Below are positions 171 to 43,866 of a stretch of DNA of 64,000 nucleotides, in pieces. Position numbers and translations under genes: made by a program. This stretch comes from Octopus sinensis (lineage: Eukaryota): the NCBI RefSeq assembly GCF_006345805.1, contig NC_043000.1, forward strand, positions 143,778,001-143,842,000. Reading direction: 5' to 3'. How positions within the stretch are numbered: position 1 is the stretch's first letter; every line of letters starts with the position of its first letter. The notes beneath the pieces were generated by a model. The model was not told the DNA's origin. It saw only the letters and a program-made list of their open reading frames with translations, and ran no database searches.

Positions 171-1130
171 CGATGCAAGCCAATCCTTTTACTAAATATG
201 TGTAGCAGCAAATTGAACAGAAAAAAATTACGAATAAACTCTATGCAAATGCCATTTTGCATACGGTCAGCAAGTGTCATTCTGTCTTTTTGTATACTCA
301 GTTTAGTACACTCCAATTCAAAATGCTTCTTGTTCAGTTAGATTAGCATAGACACCTGTCTAGTGTCAATAGACGATGTACGTATACAATGGTTGAATCT
401 TGTTTTCGCCTTTTACGTTTCATTCTTTTCTGTTCAGAAGAAATCGTCTACGATTCTGTCAGGAGAAAGATGATCTCCATGTGATTTAATATGACAAAGG
501 TACGCCGTAGATATGAAAGTGTCCCTACCATTACATCAAGACATATGGGGCTTGGTACAACACCATGAAATTCCTTGAATCCCTGTCCATTGGTCCAAAG
601 TGTTTAAAAGACCTACCTGTAATATACTTAAATACAGTTTATGGATACAAATTTTGAAATGGGTGATCTGACTTTGCATACATTAACCGGAATTAGCTGT
701 AGAAACAAAATATTGGTGACATGGGCACGCTCCTCAGTAAGGTATTTCATTGGTATTTTCGATATGTGGCCATATCTAAAGTAACTTGGGTAATTTTTGC
801 CTGAAAGTCGTGAAATGACCGTCTACGAATAGATATTTTGGTACATACAAACACGTTATTCAATGATTACCTTTGAGATTTATTGCTTGTCATGTCGAAA
901 ATGACTTGCGAATGACTAAATGGGTTATAAGATTTCATTTTAATTATTAAATACCACGTTATCATAATGTACACCTTCTTTTACAACATCACCTGCAATT
1001 CTGCGCTTCTGTAAATCAATTATTCAAATGTCTGCGTGATAGCAACTTTATACCTATACCTATCAACAAATGAATTCCCAGTTTCCAATTATTTACTGCT
1101 AGCATTAAAGATTCACAAGGAATCCTTGAC
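170..1130 (-). pseudogene. Highly decayed Penelope-like reverse transcriptase relic (tentative)
   Basis: Minus-strand fragments in the expected order across frameshifts: SVPMSP (cf. G.PMGSP), WTNGQGFKEFH (cf. W......L..F after the RT DD motif), LDVMV (cf. FLDV). No open frame. Confidence 0.3.
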
Positions 1131-1536
1131 GTTAAGAATTTAAAAGTGGAAAAGTTTAATGATTCGTGAGAGTTCTTTTCAGGTACAAAGCAGTGACTTT
1201 GTACGACACAGAACAGTTTCAGTAGATCTGTTTCTTCAAGTACTTAATAAGTTTCAAGTTGTTAAAATATATATTTCTGGCTAGAGGCATCAATACAAAA
1301 TATTTGAAGCTGGATTGTTGCTCTCTCTGTAATTTATTAAAATATCGAAATCAGTTTTTGAAATTTCTTTTCTGCTTTTTACTTCGTATCAGTATAGAAT
1401 ATAGTTTCCATTATCTAGGTTGCTTAAACACTCTGTATGTAGTCGTGAAAATCAAGAGCCGATGCTTAACATTGCTGGCACCCAATAGTTCTCTGCTCCT
1501 TAAGTGTCCATACAACGCGCTCTCGTGTGTATTTGT

Positions 1537-1720
1537 GTGGACGCGCGTTACTTGGTGGTTAGAGTGATACTTTTATGTTCTTGAGGAAAGCATTTCATTT
1601 CAAGTTGGTCTAGTCCACACAACTTGCAAAAATGAGGAATCCTGTGACAGAGAAGGGTCCCATCCGCAGGGGTGGGGCGTAAGGCAGAGAATCCAGGAAA
1701 TTCGTCTTAAGAATCAGTAG
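1537..1720 (+). mobile_element. Decayed tRNA-derived SINE (family C)
   Basis: Eroded box-A-like head GTGGACGCGCGTTACTTGGTGGTTAG; shares AAAGCATTTCATTTCA.GTT with the copy at 9586. Confidence 0.5.
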
Positions 1721-1848
1721 CTCGAATTGCCGAATAGTGGTTTTATTTCTAATATAATATATATTTATACTGTGAAATTTGATTTAATCTTAAATCTAAT
1801 TTTCTCTGTTTATTTTGATTTACTCCCTAATATTATTATTATTATCAT

Positions 1849-1893
<45 letters not shown>

Positions 1894-1902
1894 ATATATT
1901 TA

Positions 1903-1934
<32 letters not shown>

Positions 1935-4385
1935 GTGTGGGTGTGGGTGTGGGTGGAGGAGAAGAGAGAGAGAGAGAGTTTTTGTCTTGGGATATGCAAC
2001 ATCATCTTACACATAGCCGTCTCTGATACATAACAATAGGTTCCCCATTGTACACATATCTCCGGTTTTTGTTAATCTATTATTCGCTGAAAACAAGATC
2101 TTTTTAACATTAATATTGTAACAAATATATGCGAGTACTTTAATCTGAATTGGATGTTGAGTATTTTCTTTATGGGTTCGTTTCGTATTTAATTGAATTC
2201 GTATTCGATTCTATTTCACGCCAGTAGTGTTTCGGGTCAATGAATTTTAAAGGTAGAACAGGTTTTAAGGGTAAAGCAGAAGCTTTGCGGAGTCAGTTTG
2301 TACCTGTCACTCAATTCAACAGACACACGTGAGCCTGAACTATCTTTAGAGAAATTCATTTGCTGTAACCAGTATATGTCTTCAGTCTGTACATTTTTGT
2401 GACGTCTGTGCAACCCATTCTCCGCGGACGATTTTTCAATATCCACTTACTTCATTCATGCGTATTTTCCTTTCTTCTCTGACAAAGCCACACATACCTG
2501 CATGTGCGAACACAAACACACACACATAAATACACACCAAAAATCCTACAGACACGCTCAAACACATAAAAACCACACACTCATGCAAACACACATGCAC
2601 AAAATACATATGCAGAACACACATAATAACACTTTTATATTTCCTTAGCATTTGAATTTCTGCTCTGTCCATAAATTTGAAAAAACAAAAGCTTTTTTTT
2701 TCTTTTCTGGTAAATAGCCGGCATGTTAGTTCAGATAAGAAATATCAATATATGAAATATGTCTTTTGAACTTGAGTTTCTCTTGTAGAAAAATCTCCAC
2801 TCACAAACTTGTTGAAGCCTTTGTAAAATGTCCTAGAAAAAAGTTTTATAAGCATAGCGCAATAGATATTTAGTGTTTGAAGCTGTCTTTATCAGTTATG
2901 ATTCTGCCGTTGAATATGTGAAGTCGTAGCATATAGAAACGGATACATTAGTTACTACTTGTAATATATAGACATTATAGGTCTTTCATTTGAATATATT
3001 TAAAACCAAGGAATTATAAATTGACATTGTCATTCGTTCTCTATTCTTAATCGTAGCAAATTTCCTTTACTTTTGCATGCAATTGACTTTGTAACAACCT
3101 GGTATACATCCATAATCCAAGCTTTGTATATTTATGATCTTCTGCATATGACGAAATTTCATTTTCAAACTTTCTTGGTGAATAGGCAATTTATAGTAGG
3201 TGTCAGTTTTCCCACTTATATACTGGCGTTCCCTTTAGATGAGAGTCTCATCGTTTAAGAAGCATTTCTTTTCGCTTCAGATTACTGACAGTCTTCAGAA
3301 AGTCATGCATTATCCAGTTACTATTATATATTCGTTTAACTCAAATACTTATAAACTTGTAATAATAGATACACTTTATTTAAAAATACTGAAAAGTAAT
3401 CGATTGTACAGATAAATTTATTCACATACTAAGCTCAATGTAAGAAATAATTTACCTACAGAATTATATTTTCTGTTGAAAGGATATCTATATAATTGAG
3501 ATGTACATGCACGTTCACATTCCATATTTACATTCTCTTCCCAGAAAATATGTACACTTGCATCGAGTCAAAGTAATATATGTAGAGGCATTTTGCAAAT
3601 AATTAGAATGATTATTGAAAAGACGCCAAATATGTTTCACTGAGGTCAGTATTGTAGTTTCCGAACATAGTGAAATACTACTACTGATTTAGCTTTGAGA
3701 ATTGTGTGCAGTAAAAGTGCTGATCATGCAGAGATTGATACTGTTGGTCTTCTTGCTTAGTTCCAAGCCAGTACTCATCAACTCATTCGATGAATTCTGA
3801 TTTCAATAGATAAAGACGAAAAATGGAAAACTGTGACGCATGAAATATTTGTCGGTAATAGCTTGCGGAACGAACAAGTACCAGATAATCGCATATTGGC
3901 GCGCCTGTGTTAGGTCAGTCAAACTGTAGATGCTTTCAAGATTCAGATTTAAAATTTCTTATGAAAAGTAAAACATACTGAGGATGTTACATTATCAAAT
4001 TAGTATTTTATTTGAGACCTCGCTTTGTTTCGCTAAAAGAAACTGAGTAGTCCGTCTCTATGTTAACTATCATGGCTGACGTAGTCCTAGATACACAAGT
4101 GCGGAGAGAAATACGGCATAGATTTATGTGGAAAGTCTTTCATCCTATGTTTGGATGCATAATGTGCACCATGTGAGCTCACTTATTGATGGTCAACTAA
4201 ATACGATTACAACAATACAGTAGATGTAACTGAAAGTGAGAGGTTGGACTAGTCTGCATGTTTTATTACAGACTTAGTAGGCAATACTGTCTCTCAACTG
4301 TAATATTCTACAATGAATTACACATCATTTGCTTTATATTAGAAACGGTTGGCACGAAATTGATATTTTCTGTCTAGCTCACAGT

Positions 4386-4522
4386 AAATCTTAATTAAAG
4401 TCATTGAACGATTATATATATAATTATTGGCGTGTAGTGTAAGAATGATTATACGGGCATAAAAATATACTTCTTCAAAATTTCACTCTAGATTTAAATT
4501 AGATAGAAATGACCGCGAAAGA
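4386..4522 (+). repeat. Left arm of ~137-bp long-range inverted repeat (partner 9867-10003)
   Basis: AAATCTTAATTAAAGTCATTGAACG...GACCGCGAAAGA is the reverse complement of 9867-10003 with only a few mismatches. Confidence 0.9.
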
Positions 4523-5409
4523 CTGAGTGAACTACACTCTTGTTCCTCGGTTGAAAATCCGTTTTGTATTTAATTATATCAGAAAACCAACAATCTCTTG
4601 TCAAACGTCGAGCGATTTATGTGAAATAATTTACTTTGATGTTGTTGTTGTCGAGTTTAGCCCTATTGAAGCATACTGATAAAAATGCTCTGGTAGCAAA
4701 TCTGTATTTTATATCTAGTACTACGTTGGCCAGTGTGCCCTTTACGGTTTAAAAACGTATAATACGATTTTTGAAAGTTTAACAGCTATTATTGGGAAGT
4801 CAAAAGATTACGTATTAGATTCCTGTTTGATGTATTATTGTTCATGACAGCGACAATGTTTGGTATTGTCATTGATAATAGTGGTACTAATGGAGATGAT
4901 GAAAATTTATAAAAAGGTGGTGTAGATTTTTCTCTAATATTGAGGTATAAGCTTATTCTAAGGAGCTTCTACAATTCTAGAATTTTGATAAAATTTATAT
5001 CGTGACCTCATTTGGAATTACCCAGATTAAATTATGTACATGTGGTTTATGTTCGCATGAACAAAAAATATTTTCTAAGTATCGTTTTGATAACATCAAT
5101 CATACAGTAAATGAGCGTATTCTTTTAATTCTTTGAGTCATATGATTGCGTCCGTAGTGGAGAAGCACAAATGTCAATTTAATTACTGACATTGCACGAT
5201 AAGTATTTCTATTGTTGTTAGTGACTGACTGAGATTGGTGAAGGATATTTGGACGATTGTTGACATATTACCCTTTTGAAAGTAAATGTACACGCACTAA
5301 AAAATTATGACCACGGAATATATTCAGCAACGCCTGCTGCAGGCAAAAAATCGTAAATTAAGCAATAGAACTCATTCATTCATATCATTGGTATTCTCTC
5401 TTTCTCTTT

Positions 5410-5786
5410 ACTCTCTTTTACTTGTTTCAGTCATTTTACTTGTTTCACCACCTTTAGTCGAGCAAATTCTTTATAAGCCTAGTACTTATTCTATCGGTCT
5501 CTTTTGCCGAACCGCTAAGTTACGGGGACGTAAACACACCAGTATCGGTTGTCAAGCAATGCTAGGGGGACAAACGCACACACACACATACATATATATA
5601 CATATATATATATACATATATACGACAGACTTCTTTCAGTTTCCGTCTACCAAATCCACTCACAAGGCATTGGTCGGCCCGGGGTTATAGCAGAAGACAC
5701 TTGCCCAAGATGCCATGCAGTGGGACTGAATCCGGAACCATGTGGTTGGTTAGCAAGCTACTTACCACACAGCCAATCCTGCGCCT
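5410..5786 (-). mobile_element. tRNA-derived SINE family A (octopus-type, internal (CA)n(TA)n)
   Basis: Minus-strand head AGGCGCAGGATTGGCTGTGTGGTAAG...GGTTCCGGATTCAGTCCC (box A/B-like) then CTTGGGCAAGTGTCTT (CORE-like); colinear with copies at 12597, 24447, 29361, 47757. Confidence 0.9.
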
Positions 5787-5805
5787 ATTGTGATTTTAAA
5801 AAAAT

Positions 5806-5893
<88 letters not shown>

Positions 5894-6310
5894 ATATATA
5901 CATATATATTACAGATTCTTCCCTAGTGAGGATGCAAGAACAAAATGGTAATATAAATTAGAATTAAGTAAACCTTGAATGAGGAGAATAGTACTTTCTG
6001 ATATTTGCCAGTTGTGTGACGACTGAATATTTCATGTTTTTGTTTTTGGGGACCTCATCAGTGAAGGAGACAGACACGCTCGTTATTATATATTATAAAT
6101 ATTTATGTCACTACAAAACATCACACGATCTATATCGAAAAAGGAGGGATCCTCTTAGAAATACCATGCAGTTCTTCGTCCCTCAAGTTTAAAAATGTAA
6201 CAAGAGCTTAAGATAATGTAGATTTAGCTACAATGCGTGTGTAAAACAAATTTCATTTAGGTTTGTATGCATTTCATAAGATATCTTTTCAGTATTTAGA
6301 ATAGGGTGAC

Positions 6311-6367
6311 ATCTATCTATCTATTTATTTATCTATCTGTTTGTCTGTCTGAGTGTTTGTCTGTCTG

Positions 6368-6457
<90 letters not shown>
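6311..6457. repeat. (TATC)n/(TGTC)n tetranucleotide microsatellite
   Basis: Direct read. Confidence 0.95.
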
Positions 6458-7157
6458 GATTCATATATATCATACAGCATGATAAAATAATATTAACTAT
6501 AGTTAAAGTTTGATTCCGATTTCTATGGACATCACCATCTCATTCCAATTATACAGCACTGTGATGAAGCAGGTGAAGATGATTTAGAGTGTACATATTT
6601 GGATGCAGAACAGCTAAAAGAAAAGAGAAATAACATCTCCAGCTTGGGAGCCTTTTATAACACAGGTGTGTGAAAAAAATTGGTTTCACATCTATTTGGC
6701 GAAATGGATCACTTCTACGCACTGATTTCAAAAATTACAAAGAAATTATTTTATCACGTAGTTTCTTCACGTACCCGATTATTGCGTTTTATCATTATGA
6801 CCGAATTTGACTGCTGTCTTTTATTGTTATTATTAATTGTTCTATTTAAATATACAGTAAAAGTATAATTAACAGTCATACTTTAAAAAAGAATGCATCT
6901 GGCAACATTTGGACACCTTTAGGTTCACAGACACTTGCCTGCATCAATGTAGCTTCAGTCAAACACAAGCACTACAGGGAGAAAAACACGCTTTACTAAG
7001 TCATTTATATAACCTACCTACATTGTTTTATTGAATTATACGTTACATTCCAAATCTTCTCTTATGATATGGTGTATACATTTAGATAGTAAATCAAATG
7101 TATGCTATTCAAAAAGCCCCCCTTTCCTTACAGACTTCCACATCAATTCAACCAAGA

Positions 7158-7555
7158 AAGGCTTCTAGAAGATGTGCAGCTATCTCGAATGATTTCATTA
7201 AATTTATGGCGAGTTTATGCATGACAAATGCGAGAGATATATTACTGAATTTGGCAAAAATCTTACTATATCTACTTTGATGTGAAATCAGAGGCCAGCA
7301 TCAGAAGTGGAATCCTCATAAGCCCTGCTCAATTAGTGTTGGATACATGAAACAATGGATGAATTGTACAAAAGGTTTTTTTCGTTTGAGAGTTACAATT
7401 AAATGGTGAGAGCAGAAGAAACACTTTTGCTCATGTAAATTGCGGGGAACAATTCTAAAAGTGGGAAACACATTGTTTATCAAAATATCTCAACTGCATT
7501 GCAATCTGTTGCACATGGACCTGACGTTTCTGTCATATCACCAACAGAAAACTTT
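7158..7555 (+). pseudogene. Decayed N-terminus of a Chapaev3-like (CMC) DNA transposase
   Basis: Frameshifted translation KASRRC...IYGEF...ITEFGK/SYYIYFDVK/GQHQKWNPHKPC...MKQW...W*EQKKH/IAGNNSKSGKHIVYQNISTALQSVAHGPDV resembles the recalled CYICGE..YFG..DQDK.WAPH..C..WRE.KNH..YPN..SA..PV.H pattern. Confidence 0.6.
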
Positions 7556-8342
7556 CAAGACGTACTCTTGAGTTTTGAATTAGATTTCAGAAAAAGCAAT
7601 AAAACCTTGTAGTTTAAAATGAGCATTAAAGATAATTTCCTACATGCTAACTACTGCTGGAGGTTGCAACGTGAATATTTATCCAATGATATATTTTTAG
7701 GCACTGAACCTAAAATAAATACATGGAGCCTTTGCTAAAATATTACCTTTCAGTTGCATTTGTGCCATTTTAATAGGCTAAATAATATATCAAATTCATT
7801 TCTATTACTTTGCCTTCGTCTTTACCCACAAATTATGACATATTCTACTATTAAATTGTAAGAAAAATGTAAAGTAATGGGAAAGGGATTTTTTTTTTTT
7901 TTCATATTTGGAATTCGCATCAGAACAATATATAGAGTAACTACAGTTCCTTAAAGCATGTTTAAACAAATCCATTTCGAAGGCCTGTGCAATTAGCCTG
8001 ATTTTCTGTGACTTTGGATTAGAACCTGACGGCTTCACCAAAATCCGTGAAATGTTTAGAACACTTGCATTAAAATCTACCAGCCTTCGTTGTGTAGTCC
8101 TTAGTAGTAATATCATATTTGACTAAATATAGACAATGCACCCAGAAAAGTCTCAATAGAGTACTACCGTGTATTACAATAAAGGAATTACGACCTCATT
8201 GATTCTACCAAAATTAAAAATTACTCACCACTGAATACTATCACTTAATGCAGTGCATGATTGATATTGTAGGAATTCTAGATAATTATTGATTGTGTTC
8301 GTTATGATGTTCATTTATATTTGAAATAATGGGGAAATACGT

Positions 8343-8385
<43 letters not shown>

Positions 8386-8439
8386 TATGAGTTCAAAATT
8401 CAAGTCTATAAAGAAATATAATTTCACTAATGAATATTA

Positions 8440-8620
8440 CTTCATTTTAATTTGGCCAAAGTACTAATTTCGAGTATATGGGTTAGAGTCGATCGATTAT
8501 ACTTCAATATAATATTGGTATTTATATCTACAACATTGGAATATTGACATTAAAATCACATATTAGCGTATATTTAAAATCAGCTGATTGAAATCAAATG
8601 ATATTAGCTGCTCTATTATA
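8440..8620 (-). mobile_element. Very decayed SINE family D
   Basis: TTTGGCCAAAG...GGGTTAGAGTCGATCGATT...TGGTATTTAT is colinear with the copies at 20548 and 29053. Confidence 0.4.
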
Positions 8621-9585
8621 TTAATCAAATTACTATACTTTTAACCACATAAAGTAAATATCTACACTGGCAATTCAGTTGGACAGTTATGAAGTTGGGA
8701 ATTGCCTTGTGACATTTAATTACAGCTTTTATAAGTTTCAGTGTAGTTTGCAATTCATGTGTAAAAATATCAGGGCCGCTAAAATTAAAATACATTTCAA
8801 GTACTGGAGTCTATAGCATCAAATATCCATCGTTTCCTAAACGAGTATGGACCATGCGCCTAAAATGGATCTTATTGTTGTTGATACTGTGCAAAGCTAT
8901 TATACGCTACTGTAGTTAACAAGGAAGCGGCATTGGAGTTTGGTGACAAGAAACCTTCATGTATCTCAAGAAAATATCTCTGAATATTCTTGCAGAATAT
9001 ACGACAGCACATTTCTCCAGGTGGATATTGCGTCTTTGAATTCCAATACTCTTCAGCCTCTTCGGTAGAAAGAATATTTATTACAATTGGCTTACAATAT
9101 CTCCTCGCTGCACACAACATAATTTTTCAAACCCGAAATCACTTCGGGTTTAATGATCACCTACCTGCTTCCTTTCCTGACCGCTAGAACTTGTTGATTT
9201 TACTTTTAGTGTGGTACGTGTTGTCCACAGGGAACAGCTTTATAGCGCTTTCCTATGTTAGATATATTTTTATCCAGTTTTGAAAATGGAGAATGAAATT
9301 ATACCTAACATTTAATCCTTACATATATTTTTGTTCGAGTAACTTTTTAGTCCTAGTTTCGTACTCTCTACAGACTTTTTTCATTTTCTTCTATTTACCT
9401 ATCGTCTTCGAACACCCCTAGGGATTCGTTTCCCACATTATTTCCCAGCGCTCTAATAATATAATCTGTGATAATTTTATAACATCAAATTACGGTAACA
9501 GTCTTTATTATTAATCAGAGAGAAACAAAAGAGAACAAAAAGAGATCATGACGTTGTAAAGAGGACTATAAATTAAATTTATATA

Positions 9586-18036: not shown

Positions 18037-18222
18037 TATATCGTATATATATATATATATTTTTTTGATAATTGATAATTTTCTGAATAATTCTGAGATT
18101 GAATCGGCAGTATATATTTACTGTTGATAAGTTTGGCGCGAATACGTCAGTCTTGAAAATTTTAAGTCAGATATCCCGTAGGCTTCGATACAGACGCCTC
18201 GTGTATATTGTCTCTCCCAGGT

Positions 18223-18318
18223 CTTTACTGATGAAGTGTAACCTATGGTAGATTGGCTTAATTTAATTTAATTAAGCTAATTTAATCATTAATGACACAG
18301 AACGTGCTACGTCTAAAG
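18223..18318 (+). ncRNA. Type I hammerhead ribozyme, copy 1 (one A missing from GAAA)
   Basis: CTTTA-CTGATGA-A-GTGT...ACAC-A-GAA-CGT-GCT-ACG-TC-TAAAG. Confidence 0.6.
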
Positions 18319-18691
18319 GATGAATTAGGGTAAATGTTTTTAAATTTTCACCTAATTTCTGAATTAATAATACTTGGCGGTGGAGTTATGGCTGCTCTTT
18401 CTGGTGGACGAGTGACCTGTTGGGGTCACTCCTAAATCGTTATATTTATATATTTGTCGATGACTATTTTCTCTTTTTCACCAGGCCGCTGTGGTTGCGA
18501 TAAATTTCTATTGAATTTTTTGCTACCCTAAATTGACTAATTGATAATTTTCTGAATAATTCTGAGATTGAATCGGCAGTATATATTTACTGTTGATAAG
18601 TTTGGCGCGAATACGTCAGTCTTGAAAATTTTAAGTCAGATATCCCGTAGGCTTCGATACAGACGCTCGTGTATATTTGTCTCTCCCAGGT

Positions 18692-18788
18692 CTTTACTGA
18701 TGAAGTGTAACCTATGGTAGATTGGCTTAATTTAATTTAATTAAGCTAATTTAATCATTATGACACAGAAACGTTGCTACGTCTAAAG
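18692..18788 (+). ncRNA. Type I hammerhead ribozyme, copy 2 (complete core)
   Basis: Stem I CTTTA/TAAAG; CTGATGA; long stem II GTGT...AGATTGGCTTAATT/AATTAAGCTAATTT...ACAC; GAAA; stem III ACGT-TGCT-ACGT; predicted GUC cleavage after 18783. Confidence 0.85.
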
Positions 18789-19160
18789 ATGAATTAGGGT
18801 AAATGTTTTTAAATTTTCACCTAATTTCTGAATTAATAATACTTGGCGGTGTGAGTTATGGCTGCTCTTTCTGGTGGACGAGTGACCTGTTGGGGTCACT
18901 CCTAAATCGTTATATTTATATATTTAGTCGATGACTAATTTCTCTTTTTCACCAGGCCGCTGGTTGCGATAAATTTCTATTGAATTTTTTGCTACCCTAA
19001 ATTGACTAATTGATAATTTTCTGAATAATTCTGAGATTGAATCGGCAGTATATATTTACTGTTGATAAGTTTGGCGCGAATACGTCAGTCTTGAAAATTT
19101 TAAGTCAGATATCCCGTAGGCTTCGATACAGACGCCTCGTGTATATTTGTCTCTCCCAGG

Positions 19161-19257
19161 TTTTACTGATGAAGTGTAACCTATGGTAGATTGGCTTAAT
19201 TTAATTTAATTAAGCTATTTAATCATTAATGACACAGAAACGTTGCTACGTCTAAAG
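19161..19257 (+). ncRNA. Type I hammerhead ribozyme, copy 3 (complete core)
   Basis: TTTTA-CTGATGA-A-GTGT...ACAC-A-GAAA-CGT-TGCT-ACG-TC-TAAAG; predicted cleavage after 19252. Confidence 0.8.
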
Positions 19258-19388
19258 GATGATTAGGGTAATGTTTTTAAATTTTCACCTAATTTCTGAA
19301 TTAATAATACTTGGGGTGTGAGTTATGGCTGCTCTTTCTGGTGGACGAGTGACCTGTTGGGGTCACTCCTAAATCGTTATATATATAT

Positions 19389-19490: not shown

Positions 19491-19716
19491 ATACCGGAGT
19501 AAACACATAATGTGAAACAAGGTGGGAAAAAAGAGTACTCAAATACCAGTGGTAGAGTAATATGCTTTATTTTAGCAGCAGAAAATTCAACAAATCTGTT
19601 ACTCGAGTTTCTCGTTGCCGTTCATCAGACAGTTTCTAGCAAAAACTGTCTGATGAACGGCAACGATAAACTCAGAGTAACAGATTTTGTTGAATTTTCT
19701 GCTGCTTAAAATAAAG
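19491..19716. mobile_element. Palindromic mini-element with back-to-back minimal hammerheads
   Basis: 19565-19716 is a near-perfect inverted repeat centred near 19638; a homologous copy lies in opposite orientation at 43653-43866. Confidence 0.8.
19596..19632 (-). ncRNA. Minimal type I hammerhead motif (complete core)
   Basis: Minus strand CTGT-CTGATGA-ACGGCAACGA-GAAA-CTCGAG-TA-ACAG with palindromic stem III; the plus-strand mirror (19646-19683) has GAAA changed to TAAA. Confidence 0.75.
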
Positions 19717-19801
19717 TATATATATATATATATATATATATCTATATCTATATATATATAATATATACATATATATATATCGTATATCGTATATATATAT
19801 C

Positions 19802-40086: not shown

Positions 40087-42725
40087 CGAGCGAAATAGAG
40101 AGATACATATATTAATAAATAGCTGAATACACAGGTAGACAACACGAAAGCATATGCATAGTGTTTACATGTGTGCGTCTGTCTGTGAGTACGTGTGTGT
40201 GTATGTGTGTGTTTGTGTGTGGTAATTAGTGTCGAAAAGAACGTGTGCAATAAATTGCTGTCATGAAATGGGCACCTTTGAAGAAATTGTGAAATACTTA
40301 GAAATGAACGTAAGAGAAGCTAAACGATTGCAACCATGTAAATTGCAGATGAAAGTAACATACACGTTAAAAGAAAAGGGATGCAAAGGAGAAGATGATA
40401 TTAATATTATGTTTTTCATTTGGTACTGAATTATGCAATTGGATGGGAGTACATATATAGGCCATCAGCTAAAATATAGTTAATTATCGAAGGTTATAAA
40501 AACTGAAGCATGAGATAAGAGACAGATATGCGTACACGATATATGCAAATATGGCAGTACACATAATGAAACACATTAACCTATATACAGTTATCTTACG
40601 AGAGAAAAAAGTGCTGAGTAGGAAGATTGCATCTTATCTTCTGTAGCCTACCTACAGTGGAGGATAGGATAGACAAATAAAGATAGATAAGGACAGGATG
40701 TTAAAAAGCGAAAGAGAGATGATAGAATGATTAAATCGTACAAAGATGATAGAAATTTGGAGATAGAGAGCGGGAGTAAAAAGAGAGAGAGAGAAGGGGA
40801 ACGGGAGATAGAAATGGGTGAAGGATTCGGGAAGGTATATGTAATAGTAGCTGACGAGATATATGAACTTCAACAAGTTATAACCACCTTAGCTAATTCG
40901 TAGCTTCATATTAACCCTGCCTGCAATACGACTAAGCTCATGTGTCAGTGAACATATCCTCATTTATCCATGCATTGCATTGATAACATTATTAGATGTA
41001 TATTTCAATTTTAAGATATTGATGGTTGATTTTAACTATATTTGGTTGCTATATGTACTATGTTCAGCGATAGCTCAGAGGTTTCATATTTGTGTGATGT
41101 CACACTTATTGACGACGTGTGTCATGTCACATTTATTGTCGACGCGCCGTATATACACGCACAAAATACATGTTAAAACACACACAAACTCTAACATACA
41201 CACAACACACTCACACACGCCTACACATACATATATGTGAACTTTAGGTTAATTATAATATGTTTGTGACATATTTTAATTTTCGAAAAGCAAATTTACT
41301 GCATTTAATGTTGAGGAAAAAATTCAGTTATGGTAAAAGGTGTAAAAACACCATATGTATAACAGGAAACATTAATGGCCTTGCTAAATCTTTGACGATG
41401 ATTATAAGCTATTGGAACAGCAAAATGTACAGAAGATCATTATATTAGCAGTAACATAACTTGGGAGAAAGAAAGAATTTCTTCAAGTGTATTAATGTGT
41501 GTTCCCGAGTGCATTTATGCGTGTCAGTGTTTTAAAGTTTAATCCTGTATCACAATATGTGCATATGCGTAAAATTAAATGTATTACATTTAATTAAAGA
41601 ATACATCGTAGGAAGACCAACAGCACATACACTCCCTTATTATATGCAAGCGAAATAATTACTAATATGGGTGACTCATTGAAACAGTGAACACAGGAGG
41701 CAAGCAAACCATATTTGTTAGGACAAAAATTTAATGATAATTAGGTTATATATTTGTATATAATGGGGCTCATACACTTATATACTACACAAACAAGCAA
41801 ATACATGCTATGATGAAAATACAAATGTGTTCTTATAAGTTATATTTCTAAATATACAATCGAGATTTCTACGATATGATACCTTCATCTTCTAAAGGAA
41901 GTAATGTTGGCGTGTTAGCTCCCATGTTTACTTAGCGCACGAGCAATACGTTTCATTTAGACATCATTGAAAGAACTGATATTTCCTAACTCTTACATTT
42001 ATTAAGCAGCGTGTAAACATCTGACTTTCTGCGTCCACGTTGGCTGTTCATTTATCTGTGAGACCTGTGTACTTTGTATGTGTGTTCATTTTATTATTCC
42101 GTAGTGCCATGACAAGTCCTTCATCAGTAATTGTCTAATTGGATGGGTAAATTGTTGAGTACTTCTCTACTGTCCACAGCAATTTTGATGACAAAACATG
42201 ATCCAGCTACCATGTGCCTCAATCGTTTTGCGAATGTAAATGTCATTCATTATGTATATACAAATTTAGAAGGAAATTCACACATATATGGACATGTATC
42301 TAATCTATACACTTGTATTTCCACACACACAGACACACATACACACACACACATATAATCGCATACATGTACTATATGTGTGTACGTAAGTATGTATGCA
42401 TGTGTCCACCTACCTACCTCACCTGCCTAACTAATGTATCTTTCTATCTATCAAGGTTTCTATGTATATCAACTTTTATTTGTATATATTATTCCTTGTT
42501 ATATTAACCATAAATCCATTACGTCACACTGTGCAATGCTTGATGATGCTTTTACTTTAACACATATAGTATATATGTGCATTTGCGAATGTGTATATAT
42601 ATATATGTGTGTGTGTGTGTATGTATATATATACATATATATATATATATGTGTATATATATATATATACATACATACAGATATACATACATACATACAT
42701 ACATACAACATACATACATACATAT

Positions 42726-42757
<32 letters not shown>

Positions 42758-42888
42758 AAATTCGATTATCAGCGCGCCAAAAGTAGAGGCATTCGAAAGA
42801 TACATCCGAACGTAATAGGTTGTACTTTTTGCATGCGGGACTCCGGTACCGTTTTTCATCTAGTACAGCATATTATGCTCATAACAAA

Positions 42889-42948
42889 CTACGCTGATGA
42901 AGTTACAGATATCCTTGTGATATTAATAGCTGAAACTGCAGTACGTAG
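42889..42948 (+). ncRNA. Type I hammerhead ribozyme (complete core)
   Basis: CTACG-CTGATGA-AGTTA...GATATC/GATATT...TAGCT-GAAA-CTGCAG-TA-CGTAG; stem I CTACG/CGTAG; palindromic stem III ACTGCAGT; predicted GUA cleavage after 42943. Confidence 0.85.
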
Positions 42949-43386
42949 GTAATTATTCCATTTAGTATTTTTCTTTTGTCTCATCCATTGCTTTAGGTCG
43001 TGCTGAATTTATTTTATTTGAGAACAAAATCTTTGTGGAGAATGGCGATTTGACGTCTATATCTAGCATGTGACTGTCCACCTTTTCGTGTTCAGTCCTT
43101 AATTGGTATATATAAATATTTTAATCTTCGGATTCTTTTAATGTGCTAGACCACTGGTTTTAATTGACTAATATCAATTTCTACCCTTAATTTTAAATAT
43201 GAAATATATGTTCTCAAACGATAAATTGACTGCTGCTAATTTATTACTGCAGGCTAGTTTTCGATATCAGCGCGCCAAAAGTAGAGGCATTCGAAAGATA
43301 CATCCGAACGTAATAGGTTGTACTTTTTGCATGCGGGACTCCGGTACCGTTTTTCATCTAGTACAGCATATTATGCTCATAACAAA

Positions 43387-43445
43387 CTACGCTGATGAAG
43401 TTACAGATATCTTGTGATATTAATAGCTGAAACTGCAGTACGTAG
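43387..43445 (+). ncRNA. Type I hammerhead ribozyme (complete core), second copy
   Basis: Same motif; predicted cleavage after 43440. Confidence 0.85.
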
Positions 43446-43652
43446 GTAATTATTCCATTTAGTATTTTTTTCTTTTGTCTCATCCATTGCTTTAGGTCGT
43501 GCTGAATTTATTTTATTTGAGAACAAAATCTTGTGGAGAATGGCGATTTGACGTCTATATCTAGCATGTGACTGTCCACCTTTTCGTGTTCAGTCCTTAA
43601 TTGGTATATATATATATATAATATATATATATATATTATATATATATATATA

Positions 43653-43866
43653 CTTTATTAATAAACTGCAAAGACATCACAAACTATCACACAGAATTTC
43701 ACATTTCCTTTCGTCGGATATTTTGTTTGAGGAAACCAAACCTGTCCAACGAACGGGAACGTGAAACTCTGAGTAACCGTTTCTGTGATGTCTTTACAGC
43801 TTTCTTAACGCATATTACTCTACCTCCGGTACTCTAGTACTATTTTTCCACCTTGTTTCACATTTG
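43653..43866. mobile_element. Decayed palindromic double-hammerhead mini-element (homologue of 19491-19716, inverted)
   Basis: GCATATTACTCTACC...CCACCTTGTTTCACATT is the reverse complement of 19509-19565; contains CTGT-CCAACGA-ACGGGAACGT-GAAA-CTCTGAG-TA-ACCG. Confidence 0.7.

Follow-up and report, generated by a model that had tools for sequence, protein, structure and literature searches.

Metazoan non-LTR retrozymes, of which the mussel Rtz Mg353 and the axolotl Rtz331/353 are examples, have been described as non-coding, AT-rich tandems of hammerhead ribozyme (HHR) units with a self-paired monomer RNA (PMC7229834). They measure 170-400 nt, their expression and circles were shown, and they co-occur with Penelope-like elements (PLEs), which the same article calls 'a strong candidate' for the movers of animal retrozymes. 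The PLE-derived retrozymes of Xenopus and other vertebrates are likewise tandem HHR units (51-972 bp there), proposed to be non-autonomous partners of PLEs on the basis of pLTR homology (24/57 families) and co-occurrence (Li, Clavereau, Pollet, bioRxiv 10.64898/2026.07.22.740005). Among the EN+ PLEs, the Hydra clade (Craig et al. 2021, PMC8557442) and Poseidon PAc (Frangieh et al. 2024, PMC11167929) leave partial tandems with an inverted 5'-truncated arm and a tail at one end, and have an HHR upstream of their 3' ends; for the Hydra elements targeting of (TA)n was also described (PMC8557442). In vitro, a PLE protein was found to cut and extend both target strands, reverse transcription starting from two internal sites that define the tail, and this two-site start was called a signature unique to PLEs (PMC11167929). 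Non-autonomous PLEs of Chlamys, e.g. MRC1, form multi-copy head-to-tail insertions that are moved by a PLE (PMC8557442). The insertion anatomy of the family reported here bears on what moves the animal retrozymes, and on whether circles are the real intermediates.

The repeat at 42761..43604 (+) of the window, i.e. the whole 64-kb stretch of DNA that was analysed, is a non-LTR retrozyme, a kind of element already known. It belongs to a family, A1, of tandem type I HHR units (dimers to multimers) that are dispersed, non-coding and low in GC, with a highly self-paired monomer; the non-coding, AT-rich tandems, the self-paired monomer and the co-occurrence with PLEs are as in the mussel and axolotl elements. 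Stem III, of 2 bp with a palindromic loop, matches that of amphibian HHRs whose cleavage works best in the dimer (PMC7229834). The A1 units (497-513 nt) are longer than the ~170-400 nt of the class, which was not taken as excluding A1 because this size lies within the range of the vertebrate families (bioRxiv 10.64898/2026.07.22.740005). Expression and circles were shown for the retrozymes of PMC7229834 and are predicted from sequence for A1 (~505 nt); and whereas the vertebrate retrozymes were tied to PLEs by pLTR homology and co-occurrence, the tie in A1, where no alignable pLTR was found, is the anatomy of the insertions. A1 shares with the EN+ PLEs the partial tandems, the inverted 5'-truncated arm, the one-end tail, the HHR upstream of the 3' ends and the (TA)n target, but it is devoid of RT and endonuclease, its tail is ~90 nt against 30-40 bp published, and, unlike PAc, which starts without target homology (PMC11167929), it has TA-like bases overlapping both start sites. 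It resembles the Chlamys elements in its multi-copy head-to-tail insertions, apparently moved by a PLE; unlike A1, elements of the MRC1 type are described as similar to their autonomous partner at the 3' end and mostly without canonical HHRs (PMC8557442). The words 'tail', 'inverted', 'truncat', 'microsatellite', 'octopus' and 'cephalopod' do not occur in the text of PMC7229834, nor does 'tail' in that of bioRxiv 10.64898/2026.07.22.740005, where molluscs were outside the sample. In a literature search that covered mainly openly available papers, nothing was found on cephalopod retrozymes or on tail or inversion signatures in retrozymes.

Our main reading, to which we assign a probability of roughly 0.6, is that the window carries a copy, truncated at its 5' end, of a dispersed tandem HHR repeat that is non-coding and likely self-cut, circularised and copied into (TA)n by a PLE enzyme. 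That A1 is a PLE-mobilised retrozyme, by whatever template, is very probable. The new evidence is the insertion anatomy. For the in vitro assay published for a PLE it provides a concrete RNA with two predicted starting points, a motif that may be recognised and an intact enzyme as candidate, and the PLE mechanism can be read in the ends of young insertions of three retrozyme families and of autonomous Hydra elements of the same genome.

At the locus itself, a (TA)n-rich run at 42594..42757, recognized by repeat annotation and sequence, forms the 5' side of the insertion target. The insertion comprises 1.7 units, is 5'-truncated at unit position ~317 and has a 'short' 3' end. It is followed by a (TA)n run at 43605..43652, the presumed priming target, of which the first 8 bases, TATATATA, to 43612, are compatible with element and target alike. 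A scan of both strands of the window, with stem II of at most 90 nt, gave only two hits, at 42889..42948 and 43387..43445 (+). Both are complete type I HHR motifs with the layout CTACG-CTGATGA-stem II-GAAA-CTGCAG-TA-CGTAG, that is, with the core CUGANGA / GAAA / UH and three stems of which stem I is open. In the first, the core CUGAUGA occupies 42894-42900 and GAAA 42932-42935, and the palindrome ACUGCAGU at 42935-42942 precedes a predicted cut after A42943; in the second, the core lies at 43392-43398, GAAA at 43429-43432 and the palindrome at 43432-43439, with the predicted cut after A43440. Stem III, ACTGCAGT, is a perfect 8-nt palindrome in the window copy. Alignment of 42761-43114 with 43260-43612 gave 351 columns with no substitution and 5 gap columns. 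Scan and self-alignment agree with the initial annotation, which had described two HHR motifs in a repeat of 1.7 units with (TA)n on both sides; in its RNA ends, '42944/43440', a new 5' end is paired with a 3' end.

The predicted cut-to-cut monomer (42944..43440, +) thus spans 497 nt here, against ~505 nt in other copies, where units of 504-513 nt were found among the first 14 of 48 listed. Public contigs have extra single bases at several homopolymers relative to the window copy, and the value of 497 nt is therefore probably too low through sequencing indels. The monomer is strongly self-paired: its linear MFE is -128.2 kcal/mol (z -4.27, 0/100 shuffles as stable), and folded as a circle it has a z of -3.95. 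Rfam returned no hammerhead match for the window motifs, either at the gathering score or up to E=5, and its weak miRNA-like hits sit on neighbouring repeats, not on the unit. The only frame of at least 150 aa that touches the copy is a microsatellite read-through, GC is 0.337 in the 2-kb bin containing the copy, and tblastn with PLE proteins found no match in the window, so that the RT plus GIY-YIG frames of an autonomous PLE are absent from it. Pieces of the family occur as assembled contigs in public runs presumed to be RNA; from such contigs, which may derive from DNA, neither strand nor ends nor circularity can be read.

The window copy is a member of a young, dispersed family in a 2.72-Gb genome that is rich in microsatellites. 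The 3' half of the HHR gave 173 exact 20-mer matches genome-wide, against 0 for the reversed control, and the unit gave 1340 first-look candidates, the best 40 of which, when scored, made up 174 matches. Such counts bear out the earlier expectation of an abundant system. There are two sister families: A2, 83% alike, with 807 matches of one 20-mer and arrays of up to 17 units, and B, 72% alike. In an HHR alignment of 10 chosen sequences from 4 subfamilies, whose kinship inflates such counts, 96.5% of the cells were paired and 8/17 pairs showed two-sided change, of which stem I and stem III contributed two each; the covariation score was reached by 0/500 shuffles, and slid controls gave 0-1 pairs. 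For whole units (6 A1, up to 6 A2 and 4 B), 23/123 pairs of the consensus of the three subfamilies were compensatory, compared with 2-7 in slid controls. Judged by this covariation, the HHR stems of A1 are apparently under structural selection, and the proposed identity of the motifs as HHRs is strengthened by the sister families. The palindrome is not kept throughout: A2, the closest sister, has an imperfect 11-nt stem III. In two adjacent A2 units (L232-L234, G000:C1:46297000-46300800) the core GAAA has changed to GTAA, which would block cleavage.

A further family, with a 469-bp unit, lies in the same window at 18065-19388. The absence of an obvious alignment between the two units, remarked on before, was confirmed by blastn. 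The conclusion then drawn, that these are two independent families, holds only as far as this lack of alignment goes; in its pattern of two 3' ends, its target, its palindromic stem III and its tail motif the 469-bp family matches A1. Its two fixed 3' ends are ~90-100 nt apart, its targets are (TA)n and its inversions are of the S+T type described below. It has 931 candidates in the genome, and in most copies stem III is a 12-nt palindrome. Unrelated inverted, TA-flanked repeats were seen at five other loci (L066 6960-7630, L214 1364-1429, L067 7151-8571, L065 7286-8228 and L201 1019-1036), several of them with HHR motifs and two with a CCACTGG tail, and more such families exist in the genome.

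Inside one A1 HHR just 2 pairs of stem III are possible, and for the isolated motif an alternative fold (-12.7 kcal/mol) is more stable than the active form (-7.8 kcal/mol). For the 852-nt window transcript the double hammerhead was calculated at -226.1 and two single hammerheads at -216.4 kcal/mol, i.e. 9.7 in favour of the double form; the free MFE of this transcript, -227.6 kcal/mol, already includes the 8-bp duplex joining both palindromes. In the monomer circle the active HHR fold lies 4.9 kcal/mol above the MFE. These energies favour, as a prediction, the suggestion of the initial annotation that cleavage proceeds in dimers through the palindrome, and suggest that paired hammerheads are likely to cut the A1 RNA. 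The predicted dimer fold agrees with the behaviour described for HHRs with a short palindromic helix III (PMC4209133; PMC7229834). The palindromic stem III is not special to A1, being present also in HHRs of PLE loci of the same genome. In bioRxiv 10.64898/2026.07.22.740005, 8/9 predicted Xenopus retrozymes failed to cleave in vitro, and this was counted against our explanation of A1. It had also been supposed that the 1.7-mer is the minimal template for one monomer. Two HHRs are indeed needed to free one monomer, but nothing distinguishes the length: A1 arms are 36 to 2693 nt long and their 5' ends are scattered, so that 1.7 units is not borne out as a meaningful minimum and the window copy is simply 5'-truncated.

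The ends of A1 were mapped in 39 insertions, which are the best-scoring of the 1340 candidates (40 scored loci less L137, a duplicate of L100; pieces below 88% identity were left out), and short copies are under-sampled because of this choice. Sixty of the 63 outer 3' ends lay at one of two fixed sites, S, ~164 nt past the cut site, and T, ~255 nt past it, both followed by (TA)n. In the window unit the short end falls after G43106 and the tail end near 43198; the 'tail' between them (43107..43198, +) is internal in this unit, and a long-range helix is predicted around the short-end site (43062..43150, +), where TCTAGCATG at 43062-43070 would pair with TGTGCTAGA at 43142-43150. From S to T the A1 tail measures 93 nt, outside the published PLE range of 30-40 bp. 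The 15 single-orientation insertions ended at S (10), at T (4) or elsewhere (1). Of the 39 insertions 24 were inverted head-to-head, and these combined S with T in 22 cases and S with another end in 2, S+S and T+T never occurring. The 63 5' ends were scattered in a manner compatible with a uniform distribution (KS p 0.14); none lay 5 nt or less from the cut, against 1.4 expected, and 54/60 S or T arms crossed it. Junctions fall inside (TA)n, as found by a target-site duplication look-up, and flanks differ from locus to locus. Read by eye, the S+T rule also held in 11/11 inverted insertions of A2, plus 2 further ones, in 5/5 of the 469-bp family and in 7/8 of the autonomous Hydra family H2. In A2, at loci picked by pattern, the short arms start at unit positions 7 to 108 and none at 1.

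With two fixed 3' ends, 5' truncation, an inverted 5'-truncated arm and a microsatellite target, the ends of A1 bear the 'tail' signature of PLEs, which the first reading of the locus had missed. From this family anatomy it follows that the window copy is a one-arm, S-ended, 5'-truncated insertion. The strict rule of one short and one tailed end constrains two-strand integration by PLEs.

The route we propose would begin with a multi-unit A1 transcript, in which adjacent HHRs are predicted to pair via their palindromes and cut. A lone HHR is predicted to adopt an inactive fold that is ~5 kcal/mol more stable, by which a circle would be protected. The circle would be closed by a host ligase, as published for other retrozymes. 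A PLE RT/GIY-YIG protein would then, as the insertion anatomy suggests, nick both (TA)n strands and make cDNA from two fixed internal sites ~90 nt apart, one per strand, running past the cut for a variable number of laps. The insertions show the outcome: either a single arm, or a head-to-head pair in which one arm has the short end and the other the tailed one.

Whether the template was a circle was judged from the variants within insertions. In A1, substitutions per site amounted to 0.0067 for units of one arm, 0.0065 for opposite arms and 0.0197 for different insertions; with TA-run positions left out, 123 minority variants were fixed in a whole insertion, 124 were confined to one unit and 14 occurred in some units only. 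Fourteen fixed variants were private to one insertion, and 5 of these span both arms. This sharing of variants by units and opposite arms fits laps round one RNA circle that served both arms, and a cut linear monomer is not indicated as template because no 5' end lies near the cut and most arms cross it. We consider a circular RNA template probable. In the 17-unit A2 array L315 (G000:C1:190067500-190077400, 472-9131) the variants come back about every 5 units. This higher-order repeat could stem from laps round a circle of five units or from duplication of blocks; it cannot arise from a single monomer circle, so that a multi-unit template or later block duplication is needed there.

Alternatively, the same PLE enzyme and start sites could have used an uncut linear multi-unit transcript, without the need for a circle; the HHR would then be a passenger or have a later role. 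In vitro, PLE insertion took place without HHR cleavage and unprocessed RNA was the main substrate; HHR mutants of the anole PLE inserted normally and no reads ended at the cut (PMC11167929). Cleavage being dispensable in that assay, the result counts against a pure monomer-circle route. A homogeneous source array would also produce units that share variants, and the periodic variants of A2 and the GTAA in two adjacent units point to multi-unit templates or later duplication. However, daughters of a linear transcript can never be longer than their source, yet arrays of 17 units exist while every insertion is 5'-truncated; the 14 private fixed variants against 124 single-unit ones argue for a one-unit bottleneck; and cleavage seems to be selected because the HHR stems covary across families that are 72-83% alike. 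An uncut template appears unlikely to us for these reasons. Still less probable is the model proposed in bioRxiv 10.64898/2026.07.22.740005, in which a solo PLE terminal repeat is inserted once per site and grows as a minisatellite by unequal crossing-over. It agrees with the 5-unit pattern of L315 as a block duplication, but it does not account for head-to-head arms that are as close in variants as the units of one arm, for fixed 3' sites combined with fractional arrays and scattered 5' ends, or for the rarity in A1 of variants shared by some units (14 against 123 fixed), and an autonomous PLE with the A1 repeat as terminus was not found among the sampled PLE loci. An assembly artefact or a chance likeness to a ribozyme might be suspected from the indel noise in the window copy and from the failure to find a public contig across the whole locus; the 173 exact genome-wide matches, the different flanks at each locus, the HHR covariation and the presence of family words in public runs under three organism labels make this highly implausible.

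PLEs with RT plus GIY-YIG frames and young Hydra-type families are present in the same genome. No autonomous PLE aligned significantly with the A1 unit among the PLE loci sampled. A profile of the A1 tail gave a best E of 3.2 against 72 loci (one family-A neighbour aside), and A1 gave a best E of 0.00077 against the GIY-YIG loci, on an orphan fragment that lies 4 kb away from the nearest PLE frame and in opposite orientation to it, of 1.3 against Hydra-1 copies and of 5.3 against young Hydra families. A 24-mer of the published element Hydra-1_Obim had 8 genome matches at up to 2 mismatches, with translations that look like the published protein by eye, and on this ground an octopus is the probable host; the Hydra-1 copies are decayed and 80-86% alike. 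A by-eye likeness of A1 to the repeat beside L063 was not significant, and that repeat lies past the PLE's own 3' end. A loose-end motif from run X16 had 0 matches in this genome.

The young family H3, of the Hydra clade, has the RWK and DKT/EKT motifs as defined for Hydra and open frames of 727-728 codons that are 98.8-99.2% alike in 4 copies. Its terminal repeat carries an HHR and has two ends 71 nt apart at (TA)n, and its tail has 4029 exact matches in the genome. The tails of H3 (TACCACTGGTA), A1 (GACCACTGGTT; window 43149..43159, +, core CCACTGG, a possible small hairpin), B (AGCCACTGGTT), A2 (GACCACTGGTC, 56/57) and the 469-bp family (GGCCGCTGGTT, 134/134) share the motif CC(A/G)CTGG, which had been spotted among the retrozymes before H3 was found. 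The chance of the motif was put at 0.002 by shuffling and at ~0.005 per 71 nt from its window frequency, and it is present in 1/4 PLE tails examined. Its flanking bases can pair in every case, and a hairpin appears in the MFE of the isolated tail only for H3 and the 469-bp family; its distance from the short end differs between H3 and A1 (12 against 45 nt). Since the link between H3 and A1 is one 7-nt motif, it is a lead and not an identification. H3 may tentatively be named as the driver of A1, at somewhat less than even odds.

Another PLE of the genome, i.e. the Neptune-like L063 type, the family joined to L134 or Hydra H2, is a rather less likely driver. All three are present and end at (TA)n, open frames occur in the L063 type (781 codons) and in H2 (717 codons), both with two-site ends, and in L134 the RT/EN frame of the third family joins the 5' side of an A1 array through an overlap of 3 nt. 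Tails measure 62-74 nt in three Hydra families (H3 71, H2 74) and 39 nt in the L063 type, but those of the L063 type and H2 lack CC(A/G)CTGG; the L134 fusion is one of 39 loci and may be a target deletion, and the fused family's own 3' end is unlike the A1 unit. It is doubtful that the whole of a more specific scheme applies, in which a Hydra-clade dimeric RT/endonuclease would prime both (TA)n strands at two fixed points of one RNA circle, via a small CC-RCU-GG hairpin common to the parasite and the intact H3 element, and a palindrome-gated ribozyme would cut multimers only and spare the circle. If this scheme were true, A1-type families would be direct genomic proof of retrozyme circles retrotransposed by a Hydra-clade Penelope enzyme. 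A system by which circular-RNA multimers are written into (TA)n sites would be of potential interest as a tool.

Some further features of the PLEs were noted. Outside the A1 unit, a decayed H3-like terminal repeat piece with an HHR remnant and a tail lies at 43738..43865 (+) of the window (78% over 131 nt), and a short inverted H3 terminal-repeat insertion, 97% alike, is found at 19493-19721 in a TA run by the 469-bp array. Four young H3 copies (L298-L301) have F or S in place of the second cysteine of the CxCX5C linker, which L308 retains. Other PLE families (L062, L064, L067, L068, L047; L140-L168; L295-L297) carry HHR-like motifs with variant cores, namely TTGATAA (U3-A8 type), TTGAAGA and CCGAAGA, and a stem III that is palindromic or nearly so. 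In L134 the 5'-truncated PLE RT/endonuclease frame runs into the A1 array at 2956-4880, the whole lying between (TA)n, a possible template switch. The Neptune-like PLE of L063 has a 1.7-kb direct repeat (484-2153 and 6417-8091) including the (TA)n end and flanking repeats, which suggests that the 3' flank was carried along; it also has a separate upstream frame of 479 codons.
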